Shown piece after piece: positions 14,666 to 54,538 of a stretch of 64,000 nucleotides of DNA; positions within the stretch are counted from its first letter, which is position 1; each line of letters starts with the position of its first letter. Origin of the DNA: Fibrobacteria bacterium (GTDB taxonomy: Bacteria > Fibrobacterota > Fibrobacteria > UBA11236). Under the pieces are notes generated by a model. It did not search any database. It was not told where the DNA came from and worked only from the letters and a program-made list of their open reading frames with translations. The position numbers and the translations under genes were made by a program. The stretch is from assembly GCA_043732185.1 (NCBI GenBank), contig JAYTHY010000074.1:32001-96000 (forward strand), in the 5' to 3' direction.

Positions 14666-14789
14666 ATTGAGATTATAAAGTATAAATTGGAGGTGTATTC
14701 GATATTAGGCAGGTTTTTAAAGGCTTCCGATGCATTCATCCGCCCCGAGCACTAAGCAAGGTGGGTAATTTTTGTTAAATTCTGCGCGC

Positions 14790-15839
14790 ATGACCAAGCT
14801 GAACATTCTAGGTATGAGCCTTCCGGACCTGGAAGCCTTGGTCGTTTCCATGGACCAGCCCGCCTTTAGGGCCAAGCAAATCCACAATTGGGTCTTTCAG
14901 AACCTGGAAACCGATTTCCGGAAAATGAGCAATTTACCCAAACCTCTAATCGAAAACTTGGACGCCACCGCAAATTGCAGCGTACTTGAGGTTAAAACCT
15001 CCCAGCTTTCCAAGGACGGCACCCTCAAATGGGTCTTTGCCACGCATGAAGGGCACTTTTTTGAAACTGTCCTCATCCCGACTGAGGACCGACGTTCCGT
15101 ATGTGTTTCATCGCAAATCGGATGTGCTATGGGATGCACCTTTTGCCGAACGGCAACCATGGGCTTTATCCGCAACCTAACTTTGGGAGAAATCCTGGAG
15201 CAGGTTCATTTTGTAACCCGCTACCTGAAAGAAAAAGAAGGTCCAACCGCGCGCGTCTCAAATGTCATATTCATGGGCATGGGTGAGCCGCTGCTTAACT
15301 TAGAGAATGTGGCTCAAGCGTGTGACACACTCAATTCTCCAGAGGGTTTTGGGATAGCGAAGGACAAAATTACCGTTTCCACCTCCGGCATCGCTCCAAA
15401 AATTCTGGAATGGGCCGTGCGCGCACCAGACTTTAAACTCGCCATCAGCCTCAACGGAAGCAATGATGCGGTGCGTTCCGAAATCATGCCAGTGAATCGC
15501 CGCTATCCCATCGAGACCTTGCTCAAAACCGCGGATGAATATATTCACATCACCGGCCAAAGGCTTACTTTTGAGTACATACTCATTAAGAACAAGACCT
15601 GCACACCGGAAGCCGCGCGCGAACTCAAACGCATCGCCGCTAACCGAAATTGCAAAATCAATTTGATTCCATTGAACCGGGGCAATCCTGAAATGGAACC
15701 GCCGTCTGATGAAGAAATTTTAGAGTTTGAAAGAATCCTGGCGCAAGGCGACTTCCAAGTCCTGCGTCGGCGACCCCGCGGGCCCGATATCTATGCGGCT
15801 TGCGGACAATTGGCCACAGAACAGAAGAAGGTAGCCTGA
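14790..15839 (+). CDS. rlmN: Radical-SAM rRNA/tRNA methyltransferase RlmN
   Basis: CVSSQIGCAMGCTFC, MGMGEPLLN, AACGQL. Confidence 0.96.
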   Translation: MTKLNILGMSLPDLEALVVSMDQPAFRAKQIHNWVFQNLETDFRKMSNLPKPLIENLDATANCSVLEVKTSQLSKDGTLKWVFATHEGHFFETVLIPTEDRRSVCVSSQIGCAMGCTFCRTATMGFIRNLTLGEILEQVHFVTRYLKEKEGPTARVSNVIFMGMGEPLLNLENVAQACDTLNSPEGFGIAKDKITVSTSGIAPKILEWAVRAPDFKLAISLNGSNDAVRSEIMPVNRRYPIETLLKTADEYIHITGQRLTFEYILIKNKTCTPEAARELKRIAANRNCKINLIPLNRGNPEMEPPSDEEILEFERILAQGDFQVLRRRPRGPDIYAACGQLATEQKKVA

Positions 15840-36151: not shown

Positions 36152-37246
36152 TTAGACAACACGGCTCTCGCATTCAGCTAAAAAATCCGGATCAATGTCC
36201 GCTGCAATACCGGGCTCATCACTAACCTCCAAATGGAATCCCCGATATTTTGCACCGCCTAAAACCGGGTCCACTTTCTGTCCCAAAAGACATGTGTCCA
36301 AATCATAAAAAACAAAACTATCATGCGCCATCGCCAAGTGCACTTTGGCCGTGAGCGCTAGCCTGCTTTCCAGCATCCCGCCCAGCATACAGGAAACGCC
36401 GTAACGTCTGGCCGTATCCGCGATGCGCATCGCTTCCAGGATGCCACCGGATTTAGCCAGCTTGACATTGATATAGTCGAGAGATTGGGACTCGATGAGC
36501 CGAATCGCGTCGTAATGATTGAAAACGCTTTCATCCGCCATAATTCGAATGGGTGATTGTTTGCGCAAATTGGGAAGCAAGGAATCAAAATGATGGTGGA
36601 TGGGCTGCTCGCAGAATTGAATGTCGAAACCAGCCATGGCCTGAAGGGATTTTACTGCCGTGTCAAAATCCCATCCTTGATTGGCATCAATCCTCAGGGC
36701 AATGCTGTTTCCCACTGCTTCGCGTATGAGGCGCACCCGCTCCACATCTTCTTCCCCAGATTTTCCCACTTTGATTTTGAGGGTTTTGACTCCTTGCTTG
36801 ACAAAATCCTTGGCGGACTCCACCATCTTGGATGGTGTATTCATCCCAATAGTCTAGTCCGTCTCAATGGGTTTTTTGCTCCCACCGAGAAAGCGGTACA
36901 GCGGCAGCCCAGCCTTTTTGGCAGCGATATCATGCAAGGCCATGTCGAAGGCACTTTTAATGGTGGCGTTGAAGGCAATATAGGCATGGATTTCTTTCAT
37001 GCGCGTTTGAATATCAAACGGGTCTTTTCCTTTAATGATCCTGGCTAAATCGCCGCCCACAGCAAAACAGGTGCTTTGGGTTTCTCCCACCAGCATCGGG
37101 AAAGCCGAACATTCTCCCATGCCAATCAATCCCTCGGTGGTATGGATTCTAATAAATGTGTTTTGGGCCACAGTGGCGACTTCCGTCGCGATAACGAACG
37201 GCTCCATCGGAAGCGCCAATTTGAAAATCTCGGTATGGGAAATCAT
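36152..37246 (-). pseudogene. Dipeptide (L-Ala-D/L-Glu) epimerase, enolase superfamily, interrupted by an in-frame TAG at 36854-36856
   Basis: Reads '...PIETD*TIGMNTP...' in one frame; GMGECS, SAFDMALHD, KIKVG, DANQGW, EQP, ADES, NVKLAKSGG and DLD all present; RBS GAAAGGA before ATG 37246. Confidence 0.85.
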
Positions 37247-37257
37247 GGTGTCCTTTC

Positions 37258-38010
37258 CTAAGCTCCGCACAGCATGTAACCGAGGAGCGGTTGGCATTTG
37301 TCCACGCAGGATGAATAGAAGCTTCCTTCTACTCGATCTCCGGACACGGTGGTCTTTCCCCAGAAGAACTCCGCAATACTAACCGGTTTCAAATTATTTC
37401 GAGCAGCATGGTTCAAGAGTTTGGGGGCGCAACAATCTCCGGTTCCCGTAGGCATTCCCTTGATGGGATGGAATGCGTCCGCTAAAGACCGTTTGGCATT
37501 TCTAAAATTGGGCACTTCATAGAGTGCCTGAAGCTTGCTCAAGATGACATGTGATACCGTTTTTCTTTCCGCCACGCGCAAGGCAAGGCTCCGCGAACCC
37601 TTTTCCAACGTTTTGATAATTTCGGTTAAGGGATGGATTTCGATATCGCCCTCCCTAATGCCCGCCGTCATTGCTTCCGCATCAAAAAGCGGTGCTACCC
37701 AACCGGAAACATTCCAAATGCCGTTATATTTGGAAGAAAACGCGCGGAGCACCACTTCTTTACCCATGGCGTCATCGCAAACCAAAACGCCCATCATTTT
37801 TCCACGCGAGGCACCGTATAAATATGCGGTCGACAGGCGCGGGTCCGCTTCCTCAATAGGAAGATCAAAATCCATGCGGCCATGGATGGCCAGTTGTTTC
37901 ATGAGCGTCGTGCAGTGGATGAGGGCCCGAGCCGAGGGCAATGCGTGGACGATATTGCAGTCCTTACAATAGCCGAAACAACCTTCTGGTTTTGAAACTG
38001 GCTTGGGCAT
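37258..38010 (-). CDS. Stand-alone protein resembling the N-terminal (cytidine deaminase) region of TrcP/long RluA-family RNA editing enzymes
   Basis: GKMMGVLVC...LRAFS, GWVAPLFD, ERK..S, PTGTGDCCAPKLL..A....LKPVSIAEFFWG, G.FYSSCVDKCQPLLGYMLCG; extra N-terminal CxxC...H. Confidence 0.65.
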   Translation of the reverse strand: MPKPVSKPEGCFGYCKDCNIVHALPSARALIHCTTLMKQLAIHGRMDFDLPIEEADPRLSTAYLYGASRGKMMGVLVCDDAMGKEVVLRAFSSKYNGIWNVSGWVAPLFDAEAMTAGIREGDIEIHPLTEIIKTLEKGSRSLALRVAERKTVSHVILSKLQALYEVPNFRNAKRSLADAFHPIKGMPTGTGDCCAPKLLNHAARNNLKPVSIAEFFWGKTTVSGDRVEGSFYSSCVDKCQPLLGYMLCGA

Positions 38011-38122
38011 CCTTGCAATTCTCTTTCTCGAAATCAATGGGATGGGACTTAATTCACGCAGAATAATTATACGCTAAATCCTACCAAATCAAACTTTTTT
38101 ACATAAATTGAGGTGAAATCCC

Positions 38123-38662
38123 GTGGCACAACCTTCCCTACTCTATCGATTCCACATCAATTTTTCCGACATCGATCTGGGTATTTACAAATCATTTGAT
38201 TTGCGATTGGCCATGCATCCTTCCGAATCGCATGCCTATTTACTGACGCGTCTCCTCGCCTTTGTTCTCAACGATCGGGAGTATTTGGAATTCGCGGCGG
38301 AAGGCTTGGGAGATCCGGATGCACCCGGTATTAATGCCACCACTCCAAATGGTGAAATTCTGTTATGGATCGAAATCGGAAATCCTAGCGCCAAAAAATT
38401 GCATAAAGCCGCCAAGGCAGCTAGACAGGTCAAGGTTTATACCTATAAGGATCCGGAGACATTGCTGAAGGAGATTCGGAATAATAAGGTCTATCATGCC
38501 GAGTCCATCGAGATATTTTCCATCGATCCCAAAGTCCTGGAAAGACTGGCAGGTCGCCTGGAAAGAAAAAATACCTGGGATATCCTCCTCAATGATGGCG
38601 GCCTAAATATCAGTATCGGGGATGCAACCGAGGCCACGGAGCTGGTCAAACACCAAGCCTAA
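38123..38662 (+). CDS. yaeQ: YaeQ family protein
   Basis: LAMHPSES, RLLAF, LWIEIG.P...LHKA.K, VYTY. Confidence 0.9.
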   Translation: MAQPSLLYRFHINFSDIDLGIYKSFDLRLAMHPSESHAYLLTRLLAFVLNDREYLEFAAEGLGDPDAPGINATTPNGEILLWIEIGNPSAKKLHKAAKAARQVKVYTYKDPETLLKEIRNNKVYHAESIEIFSIDPKVLERLAGRLERKNTWDILLNDGGLNISIGDATEATELVKHQA

Positions 38663-38782: not shown

Positions 38783-38817
38783 GTATTAGAAAGCTCACAC
38801 ATTCAGGAGAATTGATA

Positions 38818-39507
38818 ATGTTTACTTTGCGTTCCGTAGCTACCTCACTTGCAACCCTTACCCTGGTGGCTGCGGCCTCTTACGCCGACCCCGTTATCGG
38901 AACCAGCTCGGGCATTTTCCAAAACCCCACGGGTCCGGGCGGCATGGTGACCCATGGTACCGGCACCAACCACTTTGACTGGGGCACAGGCATCGGCACC
39001 GGCCCAAGCAGCTTGGACTTCTCCGGCACACCTTTCTCCACGGAAACGGGATCCATTTTTGCATTCGGCAACTTGGACTACTTCAATGGCACAATCGCAA
39101 GCACAAGCGGAGCGAATGGCGTTGATTTCTTGGTCACCTTGGCTCTCACCACTCCCGTTAATACGGAGTCTTTCGACTTTGCCTTCAATCTTCTCAATAC
39201 AGTAAACACCTCGGATCCTTTGGCTAGTGCTGATATCGTTGAGCTTAATGGAGCCTTCTCCACCAGCTCGTTCAACTACTTGGGAACCGATTACACCTTG
39301 GAATTCCTCGGATTCGGAACCATCGTAGGTTCCGGCTACACCACCGTGAACCAGTTCCACGTGCTTGAGAGCGGTTCCGCCAACGCCCAGCTTTTGGGTC
39401 GTATCACCGCTGCCCCTGCAACCGTACCAGAACCCGGCACCATTGCCTTGTTTGGAATCGGTCTCTTGGGAATGGGAATTCTGGCCGCTCGTCGTCGCCG
39501 CGCTTAA
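38818..39507 (+). CDS. PEP-CTERM surface protein (choice-of-anchor K-like domain)
   Basis: Signal peptide; 'FDWG...SSLDFSG', 'LDYFNGTI'; C-terminal VPEPGTIALFGIGLLGMGILAARRRRA. Confidence 0.92.
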   Translation: MFTLRSVATSLATLTLVAAASYADPVIGTSSGIFQNPTGPGGMVTHGTGTNHFDWGTGIGTGPSSLDFSGTPFSTETGSIFAFGNLDYFNGTIASTSGANGVDFLVTLALTTPVNTESFDFAFNLLNTVNTSDPLASADIVELNGAFSTSSFNYLGTDYTLEFLGFGTIVGSGYTTVNQFHVLESGSANAQLLGRITAAPATVPEPGTIALFGIGLLGMGILAARRRRA

Positions 39508-43038: not shown

Positions 43039-46000
43039 ATGATCGCATCGCAAACGCGCAACCGCCTTGGGTTTGAAGGAGGCGCTTCGCTAGCGCCCAA
43101 TCCGGAGGAAATCGTTCCCGTCATTCATCTTAAAATGATGGCCACGGGTCTCGAACCCCCCACACACGGAGGCAAAGCGGAATTCACAGCGCTTACCGCC
43201 GATCTTATCCGCAAAATTCAGGCAAAGTTCCGCAGCTACCCACAGCCATTATGCCCGTTGGACAAACGCATTCAGGAATTCCTCGACCAGAATTTCCAAG
43301 ACGTAGGACTTCCCGGAAAATTGGAACTTCCTTTGCAAACCTTGCATCTGGATTTCCATGGTTTGGCCCGCGCCTTGTCCTTACCCGCCCAAGGCGATCG
43401 CTTTGATTCCGAATACGTAAAATCCTACCGGACCAGCCAAGGCGTGCTGCACAATCCCGCTACCGACCGACGTACCACCAAAGGTACCTTTCATGTCGGT
43501 GAAGGAGGACTGCCTATCTCCGCTGACAAACTAGCCGTGCCCAAACAAACTTTTGCGCGTTTGTTATGGCATGCGCTCCGTCCCACGGCCAACCTTATGG
43601 AACTTCCGTATACGCATGGTTCCAAAAAGCCGGCCCATGTATTCACTTCTCTTTTCATCCGACCCCTGGTCAGCCCGGAAGTGCCCGGCTTGCGGTCTTA
43701 CAAAGACATGGAAATCCGTCTCTTTGCCCCGGCCAGTTTGGTTTCAAACCTGGACTTTGTGGAATCCATTTTCGGCAATGCTGGGGATCCGTACCTGCCG
43801 GAAAATGATGCTGGACTGGACCCGGAGCATTTTTCCGGGATGACGGGATGCATCATATTGGCGCCACAGCTGAAGGGACTCCGCAAGAAGGAGCTGGGCC
43901 TGCCGCATATTTCTGAAGCCACGGCCGCCCACAAGCGCGACGGCATGTGCTGGACCGATCCGGATGAGCTCTATAACGGCGGCAAAGCTTTCAAAGCCAC
44001 CTTCCGCACCGCCGAAGGCGTGATCCTCACCTTGATCACGGACAACTATTTTGGGTATTGCAAAAAAGAAGTCAAGACCATGATGAGCTTTGCCTGCAAC
44101 CTCATGGGCGGGAGTGAAGAAGAACACGCCGGCGGCGCCCTTATTTTTCCGAGCTACACTCTGGGGGATTTTACCCAGCACAATGCCTCTTATATTCGGC
44201 AGCGCGGTCATTCCTTCAAGCAAGTCCGGCGCTTATTGGGTGACAGTATTTCCGTACATGCCGACGGTTACGCGCGCGACAAACTTTTTCCACGCGTCGT
44301 GTATTTACCTGAAGATGCAGAAATTTTCCTATTAGATCAGCGCATCATTTGGAAAAAGGATGGCAAAGCGCGTTCCTTGCGGTTGCTGCCCGACCACCAT
44401 TATGTTTATCCCAGCGGCTATAAGGTGCACATGGAGAAGCATCCCGACGCGCCAACGTGGCGTCTGATTGGAACGGTGGCTGAGGGTGTGCTCTGTCATA
44501 AACCCTGTACCGTTTCCGGTGGTGGAAAAAGTGAAATTTCCAAATCCATCTCCGACTCCATTCTCTATCGCACTTTCTATATCCACGATTTCAACAAGGA
44601 TTTCGACGCGGCGGAAAAGGTCCTGCATCATGATTTTACCAAACGATTTCAAAAAGCACCCAAGAGCAAAGCCAAAGCCACCAGAGAAATCTTGAATGCA
44701 AGCCGCTCTTTGGGATCCGTAGTCCGCTTGTTGACGCCTTCTCCAGAATACACGGCGGAATACAACCGCTGGCTTAAGAATATGCCTCCCTTAGTGCGAT
44801 CTCTCGTCTTCACTATCAAGCGTTTTTACCGGCCCGAATGGGGCGATGAAATCCGCTCCCATTTCAGTGTCGATATCGTCGACGGCAGACCGGGCCATGA
44901 ATTGAGCTACAACCATAAAAAACTGGTGTCCAGTTATCTCAAAGTCGGTATTGACGAAAACCGCAGTTGGCGGGTATTCCGCCTGCGCACCGATTTTGTT
45001 CCAGCCCAGAAACTCCAGGTTGAAGACGATATTACCGTATCAACGGTGTTACCTGTAGAAGACGGCTTGCCCGGCGAAGTTGAAATCGCTGCGGGCGAGG
45101 CTCCCTTGGCAGGAAAATCCCGAACCAGTGGCGCCTACTCCCGAAAATTTGTGCAAAACTGCGAATACCGTCTTTTTCAAAGACCGGATGATGCCGTGCA
45201 CCCAGGCCTCGATCGACAGGCAGAGAAAGATTTGTCCGCACCCCATAACTTCATGTCCAATTACGAACCCTTGACCAATGCGGATGTGCGCGAAATCCTG
45301 GAAGACGCCATTGTCCTCTCCCGGTTTACTCCACCGATGCGGCATGCCATTGAAAAAGCCGCGGACCAATCGTCCAGTTACTTTGTCTGTTCGGCACGAC
45401 CCCGCATGATCGATGGAAAACCCAGCGCTAATGTCCGTTACCTGCAAAACCGACCGGACTTGGTAAATCCCTTTGCCATGCATTTAGCCGACGTGGGCAT
45501 TAGGCTTAGGCGTAAGCTCACCGCCACCGAACCCGTTCTTAATCCAGTGAATGCTGTGCTGATTGGCAGACGCAATAATCCACCAGAACCGGAAGCCGGT
45601 ATCCGGCCTTTAGCGGTCTACAACCCGCTGCATTTTCAAGAATTGCCCGAGGCATTTATGGATTTCATTTCCAGCCCTACTGGCAAATCCCCTTCCACCA
45701 CCGGAGCGGGATCGGAAGGCGCACTGACCAAAGGTCCCTTCAATGCCCTTTGGCCTACGGCGGATCTCAATGCCGCCTTGGTTTCATTCATCTTGACGGG
45801 ACTTCAAGTATTCTCAACACCGGCCGGACATATCGGCGGAAACTACCGGGTGGATCATGATATGAGCTTGCTCATCCCGGAACTCTGGAGCCGCATGACG
45901 GCTGAAGAGCGGGATGCAGGAAAACTCATCAGCAATGGTTACCTATCCCGAATGAGCGATTTCCAATTCAAAGGCCGCCTCATTCCCGCTGGTAGACTTG

Positions 46001-46542
46001 GCTTTCGTATCAACGCCAGATTTGTGCATGCCTTCTTGGGCCGAATATTCTCGGATCCGTTGGCGGTCTTTCCGGAAGATATGTTGGAACCGGAAAAACA
46101 AAGCCAGGCCCACTTTGCGGACGGAGTGGAAAATATCGTCGCCACCCAACAGGCTTCGGCCCAATTTTATTTCGAAGACGGCAGTATCGAAGCCGCCTGC
46201 CCGCCGTTGCAGGCGCTACTGCACATCATGACTAAAGGTTCCTGGGAAGGCAAAACGCTCCGCAGTCCGGAGCTTCGAAAAATGTTCACCCGCGAAGAAA
46301 TGCTCAAGTCCGATTGGTACCACCAGCGACTGATTCGGCAAATGGAAAAGGATAAATCGCTATGGGAAAAACATAGGGCTTATCTCAAGGATTTCATCGG
46401 TAAGGATTCCAATCGAAAATCTGTCAGTCAATTGGGTCTTGCGCGGCGCCTTGCCTTGGTGGAAAAAAATATCCGTACAGTTAAGCAGTCGACCTATCTC
46501 AAATCTTTATCGGGAAGTTTGGGAGTGGATCCCATTCTCTAG
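43039..46542 (+). CDS. Pyrophosphate-dependent phosphoenolpyruvate carboxykinase (PEP carboxytransphosphorylase)
   Basis: 1167 aa; GVLHNP..DRRTTKG.FH, DNYFGYCKKEVKT, EEEHAGGA, CHKPCTVSGGGKSEISKS, NCEYRLFQRPDDA, TGKSPSTTGAGSEGALTKGPFN. Confidence 0.88.
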   Translation: MIASQTRNRLGFEGGASLAPNPEEIVPVIHLKMMATGLEPPTHGGKAEFTALTADLIRKIQAKFRSYPQPLCPLDKRIQEFLDQNFQDVGLPGKLELPLQTLHLDFHGLARALSLPAQGDRFDSEYVKSYRTSQGVLHNPATDRRTTKGTFHVGEGGLPISADKLAVPKQTFARLLWHALRPTANLMELPYTHGSKKPAHVFTSLFIRPLVSPEVPGLRSYKDMEIRLFAPASLVSNLDFVESIFGNAGDPYLPENDAGLDPEHFSGMTGCIILAPQLKGLRKKELGLPHISEATAAHKRDGMCWTDPDELYNGGKAFKATFRTAEGVILTLITDNYFGYCKKEVKTMMSFACNLMGGSEEEHAGGALIFPSYTLGDFTQHNASYIRQRGHSFKQVRRLLGDSISVHADGYARDKLFPRVVYLPEDAEIFLLDQRIIWKKDGKARSLRLLPDHHYVYPSGYKVHMEKHPDAPTWRLIGTVAEGVLCHKPCTVSGGGKSEISKSISDSILYRTFYIHDFNKDFDAAEKVLHHDFTKRFQKAPKSKAKATREILNASRSLGSVVRLLTPSPEYTAEYNRWLKNMPPLVRSLVFTIKRFYRPEWGDEIRSHFSVDIVDGRPGHELSYNHKKLVSSYLKVGIDENRSWRVFRLRTDFVPAQKLQVEDDITVSTVLPVEDGLPGEVEIAAGEAPLAGKSRTSGAYSRKFVQNCEYRLFQRPDDAVHPGLDRQAEKDLSAPHNFMSNYEPLTNADVREILEDAIVLSRFTPPMRHAIEKAADQSSSYFVCSARPRMIDGKPSANVRYLQNRPDLVNPFAMHLADVGIRLRRKLTATEPVLNPVNAVLIGRRNNPPEPEAGIRPLAVYNPLHFQELPEAFMDFISSPTGKSPSTTGAGSEGALTKGPFNALWPTADLNAALVSFILTGLQVFSTPAGHIGGNYRVDHDMSLLIPELWSRMTAEERDAGKLISNGYLSRMSDFQFKGRLIPAGRLGFRINARFVHAFLGRIFSDPLAVFPEDMLEPEKQSQAHFADGVENIVATQQASAQFYFEDGSIEAACPPLQALLHIMTKGSWEGKTLRSPELRKMFTREEMLKSDWYHQRLIRQMEKDKSLWEKHRAYLKDFIGKDSNRKSVSQLGLARRLALVEKNIRTVKQSTYLKSLSGSLGVDPIL

Positions 46543-50902: not shown

Positions 50903-52624
50903 ATGCAGCGTTTGGCCAAACTAGTGTGTTTTGTGATCGTGCTCCTGGTTGTCTTCCCTCCCCATCTTTTGAAAGCCCAGTCCTGGACCTACCCTGGGTG
51001 CCCGGCCCCAATCACGGATGCGGATTTCCAATATACCGTCCTCATGCAGCATGGTAAGTCACCGGATCCTAGTCTTGCGGAGCCGGACAAAATGGATTTC
51101 GACATGGATGCGCAAGGAAATGTGGATATTTATTTTACGGAAATCCGGCCAGGAAATATCAAACGGTATTCTGCAGTCACAAAAACTGTTAAAACCTTGA
51201 TCAAACTACCTAATTGGGGTGGCAGCTCAACTGATTATTTGACTGTAAAGAATTCCAACCATGTCGAAGAAGGTGTGACTGGGATTGCCTTGGATCCCAA
51301 TTTTAAAATCAACCATTGGCTCTATGTGCATTGGTCCCCGTTGCCAGCCACTGCGCCCACCTTTAGGGTATCCCGGTTCACGGTAGTGGGCGATACCATA
51401 TTGATGAATAGTGAAAAGGTTTTGCTGTCCATTGACGCGCAGCGGGATGAATGTTGCCACACGGGCGGCTCCATGGCATTTGACGATTATGGAGATCTCT
51501 GGATAGCGCAAGGAGCCAATGGTGGCCGCGGATCCAATAGCCCTACTGGCACGCCTCCGGTGGGAATGGATGAAGTCCATAGATACGCGAGCGAAGAGTG
51601 GGGCGCAAGCAGCACCCATGGCATGCGGGGAGGCTTTTTGCGTATTCATCCAGATAATTCCGTGAAAGGCTATTCCATTCCCGCTGGAAACTTTGGGGAA
51701 TACTTTGCCAAGCAAACGGGCAACCAGGACTATTTGGACACGAGTAAAGTTTTGCCTGAAATTTATATCAAAGGGACGCGGAACAATTATAGCATGGCTC
51801 TGGACCCGGTGCGCCGGTGGGTGGCTTGGGGCGACGTTGGGCCCGATGTCATGCCTACAGCTGTTCGTGAAGAAGTGAACTTACGCAAAACTCCCGGGTT
51901 CGAAGGTTGGCCTTACTTTGTAGGCAACAACACCGTATTTTCTGGAAATAAAAATCCTTCCGCTCCAACCAATACCTCCAAATGGAATACTGGCCTAACT
52001 ACTCTTCCACCCGCGCGATCCGCGACCCGACTCCCAAACATTGGCCCTAACCCAATCTCTGGCCCCATTTACCGTTATGATGGAGACTCCAAATCAAAAG
52101 TAAAACTACCGCCCCACTTTACTCGAAAATGGTTTATCTGCGATTGGGCGACACGGGCCTTTCAAGTTCTGACGTTGGATTCGGCTGGAAACACGGTGAC
52201 GGCATCCCAACCCATTTTCACAAACTTTGATTTTTCTGGGCCAGTCGATTTTAGGGCTGGTCCGGATGGGGCCCTGTATGTTTCCGATTATGGTGGGACA
52301 TTGTTTGGCGTTGCCGATAATACCCAGATTGTGAAAATATCCTATGCGGGCACGTGCAGGCCCAATGAACCTAAATTGGAAAAAATAGAGGCATCTGGAA
52401 TTGGCGACCCGAATTCCGAAGCAGCGACCGACCGCCTTGGCTATCTGATCAATCTTCGCTCCGGACAATTCATTTCCGTTCCCGCAGGCATGGTCGGTTT
52501 TGAGCTTTATAATATGGCTGGAAAAAAGATTTGGGAGTCGGGTTCTTTAAAAGCAAAGGTATCCTTCCAGTTACCCACCCAGCTAGCTTATGGTGCGCTT
52601 AAATACAGGTGGAAAAGAAGTTAA
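50903..52624 (+). CDS. Secreted PQQ-dependent sugar dehydrogenase (GSDH) family beta-propeller
   Basis: EEGVTGIALDPNF..NHWLY, CCHTGGSMAFD, PEIYIKG.RN, GDVGPD, GWPYF.G.N, GPDGALYV.DYG. Confidence 0.82.
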   Translation: MQRLAKLVCFVIVLLVVFPPHLLKAQSWTYPGCPAPITDADFQYTVLMQHGKSPDPSLAEPDKMDFDMDAQGNVDIYFTEIRPGNIKRYSAVTKTVKTLIKLPNWGGSSTDYLTVKNSNHVEEGVTGIALDPNFKINHWLYVHWSPLPATAPTFRVSRFTVVGDTILMNSEKVLLSIDAQRDECCHTGGSMAFDDYGDLWIAQGANGGRGSNSPTGTPPVGMDEVHRYASEEWGASSTHGMRGGFLRIHPDNSVKGYSIPAGNFGEYFAKQTGNQDYLDTSKVLPEIYIKGTRNNYSMALDPVRRWVAWGDVGPDVMPTAVREEVNLRKTPGFEGWPYFVGNNTVFSGNKNPSAPTNTSKWNTGLTTLPPARSATRLPNIGPNPISGPIYRYDGDSKSKVKLPPHFTRKWFICDWATRAFQVLTLDSAGNTVTASQPIFTNFDFSGPVDFRAGPDGALYVSDYGGTLFGVADNTQIVKISYAGTCRPNEPKLEKIEASGIGDPNSEAATDRLGYLINLRSGQFISVPAGMVGFELYNMAGKKIWESGSLKAKVSFQLPTQLAYGALKYRWKRS

Positions 52625-53202
52625 CCATGTACCGCACTGCTGGTACCATAATTTGGAATGATACTGTCCTCAAATTTGAGCCATTCCTTCCAGCGGTTTT
52701 CCACTCCAATGGACGATTCGAATTTTCTGGCATGTTTTAGGAAAATGGTGAAATGGTTGGCTTCGGAAACCATCAGTTCCCGATAAAATTTTACCAGTTC
52801 CGGATCTTTCAAATGTTCCGACAAGACCCGGAATCGTTCGCAGCTTCTGGCTTCGATCATAGCGGCAAACAGCAATCGATCCACAAGGGCCGATAAACGA
52901 CTTCCGTCCTTTTTCATAAATCTAAGGAGAGCGTTCACATATTCATCTTTCCGTTCACGACCGAGTTTCACACCTCTCGCCTTTAACATGTCATGCACCA
53001 ATTGGAAATGGGACATCTCCTCTTGAGCGATGATTGAAAGCTCCGCCACCAATTCGGTGCGTTCTGGGTTTTGGGTAATAATGCTGATGGCGTTAGTCGC
53101 CGCTTTCAGTTCGCACCAGGCGTGATCGATTAAAACATCCGCAATGCTGCCTTCAACCAAGACGGCCCAGCTGGGATCGGTTCTGAGTTTTAATCCCAAC
53201 AT
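52621..53202 (-). CDS. miaE: tRNA ms2i6A37 hydroxylase (diiron)
   Basis: LIDHAWCELKAA, EEMSHF, DRLL.AAMIEARSCERF, FY.ELM.SEA.H. Confidence 0.92.
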   Translation of the reverse strand: MLGLKLRTDPSWAVLVEGSIADVLIDHAWCELKAATNAISIITQNPERTELVAELSIIAQEEMSHFQLVHDMLKARGVKLGRERKDEYVNALLRFMKKDGSRLSALVDRLLFAAMIEARSCERFRVLSEHLKDPELVKFYRELMVSEANHFTIFLKHARKFESSIGVENRWKEWLKFEDSIIPNYGTSSAVHG

Positions 53203-53206
53203 ACTG

Positions 53207-54538
53207 TCATGCCAAAAACTCGCGCACTTCCGGATCCAACCACAAATCCCTTTCGCTTAAGGGTTTCCGCAACGTAATGCCTTCCAACGTGGTGCAGCGG
53301 CTTAAAGCCACATAGGATTGGCCATGCGCAAAAGCCCCTGAACCCAGGTCAATGATGATCCGGTCAAACGTCTTTCCCTGACTTTTGTGTATAGTCATGG
53401 CCCAGGCAAGCTTAAGCGGAAATTGTTTAAACCATCCCACCGTTTTAGGTGTCGGCCGACCGGTTACCGGATCAAGTGCATAGCGCACGCTTTCCCAACT
53501 CACCTTTTCAACACGCACGGAACCCAATGCACCGGGTACGGGCAAGCGGCCGGGGATATCCACCCAAATCGATTCCGCTTCCATCGCCACCACCACTCCG
53601 AGTGTTCCATTGACCCAATGGCCTTGGGCATGGTTTTTCAAGAACATCACTTGTGCGCCCGCTTTAAGGCTTAGCTGCGCATCGGTAGGAAAAGCGCGGT
53701 TGTCGAACTCGCCTTCCACCTGGGCCTGATAATAAGCCAGAGGCGACGTCAAGGTGGCCAACCTTTGCGCGTTTACGCGATCAGCGGTGAGATTTGTGGC
53801 GGTCAATGTGATGCAGGGATCGGCCAAATCGGGCTGGAAGGCGCTATCCAAACGGACGTTTAGGGCTTCGAGATCTTCGGCTTCCGCTTCACCACCGCGC
53901 ACCGCATTGAGAAGGGACAGGAAGTTTTTCTCCTTCTGTCGATACACTTTTTTCAGTTCTACCCTGTCGAAGGGTAACTGGGAGAATACCTGGGCTTTGA
54001 AGAACCAGGGGCTCTCGTACAATGAGCGGAAGGCTTCGGATTCATGCGGGGAAACAACCGGGGGAAGCTGATGCAGATCTCCGAAGAATACCATCTGTAC
54101 ACCCCCAAAGGGCAGGCCGGGCTCAGGTCCATGGCTGCGCAGGAATATATCCATGGCATCGATAATATCCGCTCGTACCATGGACACTTCATCGATTATA
54201 AGCGTGCTTAATTTCCGATACATGGCGCCGCCGCCTTGTTTTGCCACCGCTTCTGGAAACAACACCTGGGGTGGAAATCGAAAAAAGGAATGGATGGTTT
54301 GTCCACCCACGTGCACGGCAGCCACGCCAGTTGGCGCTAAAACCACGGCCTTGGAAATGACCCGCTGCTTTAAATGTTGCAGCAATGTGGATTTCCCCGT
54401 ACCGGCTTTGCCGGTTACAAATACGCAGCGACGGCCTTCCTGGATGCATGCCTGCACGTCCTGGAAACCATTATTCCATTCCAGCGCGTCCTGAAAGGAA
54501 TCCAATGTATTTGGAAAATTATTATCCCGCAAGGGCAT
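53207..54538 (-). CDS. PIF1-like ATP-dependent DNA helicase
   Basis: TGKAGTGKST, LAPTGVAA, IIDEVSMV, FGG.Q..FFGDL.QLPPV, QFPLKLAWAMTIHKSQG, YVALSR. Confidence 0.9.
   Translation of the reverse strand: MPLRDNNFPNTLDSFQDALEWNNGFQDVQACIQEGRRCVFVTGKAGTGKSTLLQHLKQRVISKAVVLAPTGVAAVHVGGQTIHSFFRFPPQVLFPEAVAKQGGGAMYRKLSTLIIDEVSMVRADIIDAMDIFLRSHGPEPGLPFGGVQMVFFGDLHQLPPVVSPHESEAFRSLYESPWFFKAQVFSQLPFDRVELKKVYRQKEKNFLSLLNAVRGGEAEAEDLEALNVRLDSAFQPDLADPCITLTATNLTADRVNAQRLATLTSPLAYYQAQVEGEFDNRAFPTDAQLSLKAGAQVMFLKNHAQGHWVNGTLGVVVAMEAESIWVDIPGRLPVPGALGSVRVEKVSWESVRYALDPVTGRPTPKTVGWFKQFPLKLAWAMTIHKSQGKTFDRIIIDLGSGAFAHGQSYVALSRCTTLEGITLRKPLSERDLWLDPEVREFLA

Follow-up and report, generated by a model that had tools for sequence, protein, structure and literature searches.

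The window analysed here is a stretch of 64,000 nucleotides from a Fibrobacteria bacterium (contig JAYTHY010000074.1, positions 32,001 to 96,000; genome G000, completeness 100%, contamination 1.2%). On its minus strand, at window positions 37258..38010, lies an open reading frame (ORF) free of internal stops that encodes a 250-aa protein (P0001), a compact, stand-alone cytidine deaminase of the type found in the tRNA editor TrcP. An alternative TTG start upstream, at 38037, would add 9 aa. Read from the N-terminus, the protein carries CKDCNIVH, GKMMGVLV..LRAFS, GWVAPLFD, ERKTVS, PTGTGDCCAPKLL, IAEFFWG and FYSSCVDKCQPLLGYMLCGA, and then stops; the translation agrees in length, motif series and end point with what a first-pass annotation of this DNA had described. 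No Pfam or NCBIfam family scored above cut-off, a PDB sequence search returned zero relatives and the ESM Atlas gave unnamed clusters only. Homology within the family was far above chance, with 591 of 1093 candidate proteins (137-438 aa) matching at E<=0.001; the best titled match in the genome scan was a Fibrobacterota record (63% identity). Compact deaminases of the TrcP type are thus invisible in current annotation, being named 'hypothetical protein' and belonging to no Pfam or NCBIfam family.

The Vibrio cholerae protein TrcP (VCA0104) edits C to pseudouridine at position 32 of tRNA-Tyr. Its N-terminal half by itself converts C32 of tRNA-Tyr to U, residues C282, C324, C328 and E303 are essential, and the catalytic residues named include no Lys (PMC9553926). 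The stand-in for TrcP in the alignments was WP_166015519.1 of Vibrio sp. HDW18, in which 11/11 numbered TrcP residues occupy the same positions. The C-terminal part of the window protein aligned to it with 39% identity over 104 aa (E 5e-24), bearing out the proposed homology to the deaminase half of TrcP. C193, the first Cys of CCAPK (37432..37434, minus strand, as for all features of the protein), pairs with the Zn ligand C282, E214 (37369..37371) with the catalytic Glu E303, and C235-x3-C239 (37294..37308) with the Zn ligands C324 and C328. All four residues are invariant, both in 108/108 close rows and in 77/77 diverse rows. The Zn site that the first-pass annotation had sought among these Cys corresponds by alignment to the one known from TrcP; the Lys it had considered alongside them has no counterpart among the catalytic residues of the TrcP paper.

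Editing by TrcP needs six basic residues of its long helical domain (PMC9553926). These tRNA-tethering residues (R168, R171, K172, R175, K201 and K208) all fall opposite a gap of about 90 residues in the window protein. The AlphaFold2 model (mean pLDDT 94.1) has helices at residues 111-134 and 140-161, which make up a 51-residue hairpin (37528..37680) with the RKxxS base kept (R149, S153). The helical insert is much shorter, as had been noted, and as modelled the hairpin is the stump of the long helical domain of TrcP. A globular domain with the fold of blasticidin-S deaminase (BSD) and cytidine deaminase (CDA) is present in the TrcP-type family, and the solved structures closest to it in fold have small nucleosides or DNA as substrates. 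Fold searches with the protein's own model returned helical-hairpin matches only; this is not evidence against a deaminase fold, since such masking was also encountered in the TrcP study. With the model of a homologue, Foldseek gave zero matches at E<=0.001, and its weaker rows include BSD entries. The active-site loop carries the same charge as in long fused forms, and comparisons of surface charge did not separate the clade of the window protein from them.

Besides the catalytic residues, C15, C18, H22, C194 and C248 are invariant in the close alignment (108 rows). The first three form an N-terminal knuckle, C15-x2-C18-x3-H22 (37945..37968), and C248 belongs to the terminal MLCG (37267..37269), where the Vibrio orthologue has Q337. 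The motifs at both ends could be read in 328 distinct sequences, relatives that are not independent of each other: all 257 with CxxC..H have a Cys at position 248, and 62 of the 71 without the knuckle lack that Cys. It is likely that the knuckle and C248, as candidate fourth ligand, form a second, CCHC-type Zn site that joins both ends of the chain. The extra CxxC..H was correctly spotted at first pass. However, split and short fused relatives share it together with C248, so it is no hallmark of the stand-alone form.

The family profile found 1632 clusters at 50% identity, and the genome scan yielded at least 598 matching stretches. Eighty stretches were kept and four loci from the window's own genus added, which, minus the window's own locus and one duplicate, left 82 loci. 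An adjacent RluA-like gene made 51 of these two-gene operons; 6 were fusions and 25 had no synthase nearby, 3 of the 25 stopping at a contig edge. Among the 68 longer matches, PF00849 is present in 64 and a GDSL domain in 2. In P0122 and P0124 the compact deaminase stands behind a GDSL/SGNH hydrolase domain in place of the pseudouridine synthase; P0232, P0235, P0265, P0291, P0310, P0316 and others have a long helical insert and no synthase on the chain; and P0179 is a fused TrcP-like protein of 440 aa with almost no helical insert, a natural minimal version. One split deaminase and RluA operon (L087) sits on a 72-kb Desulfobaculum plasmid record (NZ_CP090010.1, 32813-34153). The chain of the window protein lacks the synthase domain, as the first-pass annotation had seen, its stop codon coming two codons past C248. 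All close relatives end alike at the C-terminus and are not full fusions, which rules out a recent truncation or frameshift.

In the gene trees (quick searches, SH-aLRT support only) the window protein is nested among split forms, in a clade of 10 rows in which every deaminase is alone (SH-aLRT 97; own genus, two Pedobacter and four Bacteroidia). A synthase profile was built from 16 split synthases (alignment A2); cognate genes score 330-366 bits against it, and 109 of 113 matched long proteins reach at least 144. No cognate synthase was found (115 bits or less) in 22/22 query-type genomes, several of them incomplete drafts: the 10 of the clade and 12 further genomes of the Pedobacter genus. 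The best score in G000 was 114 bits, and a second profile gave 125 against 274-368 for cognate genes. Outside this clade, 10 of the 15 genomes with an 'alone' deaminase hold a cognate synthase elsewhere, in four cases beside a second copy of the deaminase. Two deaminases each occur in G070, G073, G078 and G080, one compact and alone (or by a synthase remnant) and one beside a cognate synthase. The synthase lies 8-17 kb from the deaminase in G069, G075, G076, G079, G286 and G290, and on another contig (337 bits) in G305, which represents the sister lineage of the clade. One locus, L013, was dropped from the count of partnerless loci because its closest relative (L226, in G305) has this unlinked cognate synthase. 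These data are compatible with a partner gene that was at first adjacent, then unlinked and finally lost, as far as quick trees can suggest it.

A second view comes from the genus to which G062 belongs, identified as Pedobacter from the title of record L006. Of its 201 genomes, 57 match the family, 14 with a protein of the same type as in the window (type I) and 43 with a weaker match (type II). The 16 type II proteins that were read have 248-276 aa, a short hairpin, GECA(A/G)PK and no knuckle. No synthase lies within 1.5 kb of these 16 loci, and a TrcP-type synthase was not found in the 22 genomes of the genus tested for this lineage. Type II groups with long proteins of Vibrio and Bacteroides-like origin and is separated from the clade of the window protein by a branch with support 99; therefore, the loss of clamp and synthase happened two times. 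The two types never occur in one genome (0/57, p 0.04). A FastTree of one marker gene, covering 79 of the 201 genomes, placed the 14 type I genomes together in a single clade next to a type II clade, and all 14 members keep the gene. This is suggestive only of a single replacement of one type by the other, and the exclusivity was rejected as support since it reduces to that one event.

These patterns bear on whether the deaminase might bind one of the host's RluA/C/D-like paralogues as an adopted partner and hand over the tRNA, which would restore the full C-to-pseudouridine pathway. Its relatives do use separately encoded synthases, be they adjacent (51/82 loci), 8-17 kb away or on another contig, G000 holds 8 PF00849 genes from which to choose, and a fusion of the TrcP N-terminal domain to RluA is functional (PMC9553926). 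However, the separated halves of TrcP do not cooperate in Vibrio, and free RluA is inactive on U32 of tRNA-Tyr (PMC9553926). Moreover, 46/46 genomes of the Pedobacter genus have the same 3-4 generic RluA-family paralogues, whichever deaminase they carry (type I, type II or none), so that no partner co-varies with the gene. We regard an adopted partner as decidedly unlikely; the first-pass idea of a synthase acting in trans thus describes many relatives, but no such partner was found in any query-type genome.

The ratio dN/dS was 0.05-0.25 in 8 pairs, at shallow as well as deep divergence, and saturated in 2; the deaminase gene is under purifying selection. This is hard to square with the protein being a remnant half from a split system that is inactive or non-catalytic and heading for loss. 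The gene is lacking in 11 of 15 own-genus genomes as sampled, and a co-transcribed downstream gene is broken in G000, as a relic would lead one to expect. However, the catalytic residues never vary, the gene is retained by every member of the Pedobacter clade and over two phyla at ~60% identity, and synthase-less forms arose twice. A relic is therefore highly improbable.

What, then, does the enzyme act on? In G000, C32 is present in tRNA-Tyr (loop CT GTA AA), tRNA-Phe, tRNA-Cys, tRNA-Trp, both UUR-reading tRNA-Leu and two tRNA-Ser, and the ms2i6A37 pathway is represented by two IPPT genes and a MiaB above cut-off. A C32 tRNA-Tyr in an ms2i6A37 context is common in bacteria and is permissive only. 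The two IPPT/MiaA-like genes of G000 are at C47 and C81, and two RlmN-like genes at C74 and C45. C32 was also found in tRNA-Tyr of 4/5 further type I genomes searched, and in G203. The tRNA-Tyr of G203 (L119:1408-1491) has C38 in place of A38, and its tRNA-Leu(CAA) is alike (L164); MiaA requires A36-A37-A38. To our knowledge, E. coli has no TrcP. In the Pedobacter genus, T32 in tRNA-Phe occurs in 18/144 genomes without the gene and in 0/57 with it (Fisher p 0.002). It was rejected as evidence of compensation, as the 17 sampled T32 genomes fall in one clade and represent a single event. Across 32 genomes of the window's own family, inspection by eye revealed no genuine T32 in tRNA-Tyr, -Phe, -Trp, -Leu or -Ser, and one Cys-like row (G009).

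On balance, we think that the window gene probably encodes a Zn-dependent TrcP-family deaminase of tRNA cytidines, acting without a pseudouridine synthase of its own. The Cys3/Glu site is complete, the family has the deaminase fold, the gene is under purifying selection, the clamp is lost and no TrcP-type synthase was found. With the deaminase half alone and no matching synthase in the genome, the predicted product is probably plain U, and a C-to-U function is plausible. Zn on C193, C235 and C239, together with E214, would activate water for hydrolytic deamination of C32 to U32 in the anticodon loop of at least one of the tRNAs that read UNN codons. Of the C32-bearing tRNAs, tRNA-Tyr would be the ancestral target. 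According to PMC12588516, TrcP forms pseudouridine 32 in tRNA-Tyr and in no other tRNA, and is so far Vibrio-specific. Without the long helical clamp, recognition probably depends on the anticodon stem-loop on the RNA side and on the hairpin stump and extra Zn knuckle on the protein side, and the range of tRNAs may differ from that of Vibrio. U32 may be the end product, or may be isomerised independently by a housekeeping RluA-family enzyme.

The strongest point against this interpretation is that residues which TrcP needs for editing are lost. The same loss could mean that the deaminase has been re-targeted, to stem-loops of mRNA or rRNA, to single-stranded DNA or, in the manner of BSD, to a free or modified cytidine compound. 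Some 20 columns differ consistently between its clade and the split or fused relatives (e.g. K126H, G129T, H161x and H228E), and small nucleosides and DNA are the substrates of the nearest solved folds. The spread over two phyla is patchy: the query-type gene occurs in 4/61 relatives and 14/201 genomes of the Pedobacter genus, and any TrcP-type domain in 10/251 genomes of the phylum among the best 150 rows (G011 counts as one no-match in the denominators of 61 and 251, and in the 32 genomes of the tRNA survey). However, split and short fused relatives also lack the tethering patch and yet keep a tRNA pseudouridine synthase, so that the absence of the patch need not mean a changed substrate, and this is the strongest reply to the objection. 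Neither a conserved metabolic, defence or immunity neighbourhood nor more than one partial match among 50,697 phage records was found, and the active-site loop has kept the charge of the long fused forms. Re-targeting is a serious possibility, if not a likely one. A bolder form of the tRNA-editor reading is that TrcP twice became a free-standing 250-aa C-to-U RNA editor, in interchangeable versions that would edit anticodon-like loops (several tRNAs, possibly mRNA stem-loops) and leave U; we consider this unlikely. If true, bacteria would have an RNA-editing activity restricted to C-to-U that could serve for recoding, and a deaminase scaffold that is both new and compact.

An enolase-superfamily (dipeptide-epimerase-like) gene starts 11 nt past the deaminase stop (36152..37246, minus strand) and is interrupted by an in-frame TAG (36854-36856). 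In G008, whose locus is nearly identical, the frame stays open at this position, so either the TAG arose recently as a nonsense mutation or the assembly is wrong here. The gene is missing here in G002 and G007 and is probably not part of the system. On the other side lies a divergent yaeQ gene (38123..38662, plus strand; PF07152, E 7e-46), which is the same neighbour in G002 and G008, as local synteny only. The gene names yaeQ, TapT and epimerase go beyond the Pfam labels. The deaminase gene of G008 (L002) differs from that of the window by only 7 substitutions (dS 0.03), though the genomes stand for different species, and the G008 locus lacks the PEP-CTERM gene (window 38812-39507) between yaeQ and the next gene. 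An ORF of 1167 aa lies at 43039-46542. The tRNA-modifying genes miaE (about 52624-53208) and rlmN (14784-15827) are 15 and 21 kb from the deaminase gene, unlinked as first reported. No conserved neighbourhood of any kind was found around the deaminase loci. Genes related to RNA do turn up repeatedly as neighbours, in lineages apart from each other: one congener has DTW and DEAD genes, four Bacteroidia have MiaE and, for type II, there is a DEAD helicase at 5/5 loci with neighbours inspected and TruA at one. Among L102-L117, type II deaminases often stand directly upstream of the DEAD-box helicase gene. The neighbours at the window locus and at the Pedobacter type I loci are not RNA-related. 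A promoter scan gave 0 sites against 2.7 expected.

TrcP has been described as an obligate three-part channeling enzyme, and according to the text of PMC9553926 every homologue found there had both halves. A full-text literature search, with subscription journals outside its scope, gave the TrcP paper, reviews and unrelated work, and no description of a synthase-less or compact TrcP. New here is that a TrcP-type deaminase persists under selection without clamp or matching synthase, and does so in two lineages independently, cultured Pedobacter among them. One small gene makes testable whether U32 alone is the useful product, how specificity arises without the long helical domain and whether other RNAs or nucleosides are substrates. 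Archaeal CDAT8 and trypanosome ADAT2/3 convert tRNA C to U without an attached synthase (PMC9553926), a functional comparison only. BSD, CDA and the wider CDA fold have no Pfam or PDB sequence match to the window protein, nor was one found in Pfam, NCBIfam or PDB sequences to classical CDA, dCMP deaminase, TadA or APOBEC families; the catalytic Glu of TrcP is placed differently from that of BSD and CDA (PMC9553926). Closer are the split operons, mainly of Desulfobacterota, in which a compact deaminase is paired with an RluA-like gene of ~210 aa. They share the compact architecture, 42-50% identity and the knuckle with C248, but differ in having the cognate synthase (330-366 bits, against at best 115 in 22/22 query-type genomes). 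With TrcP itself, the protein shares a CDA domain interrupted by a helical insert, the 21/21/4 spacing of catalytic residues and the GxMxG, AFS, G(W/F)VxP and RKxxS motifs. Unlike TrcP, it carries no RluA domain, a TrcP-type synthase was not found in its genome either, its helical domain is ~90 aa shorter and without the six basic residues, and it has the extra CxxC..H, C248 and C194. With two defining domains (clamp and synthase) missing, it is not a canonical TrcP; what it resembles is the first step of TrcP.
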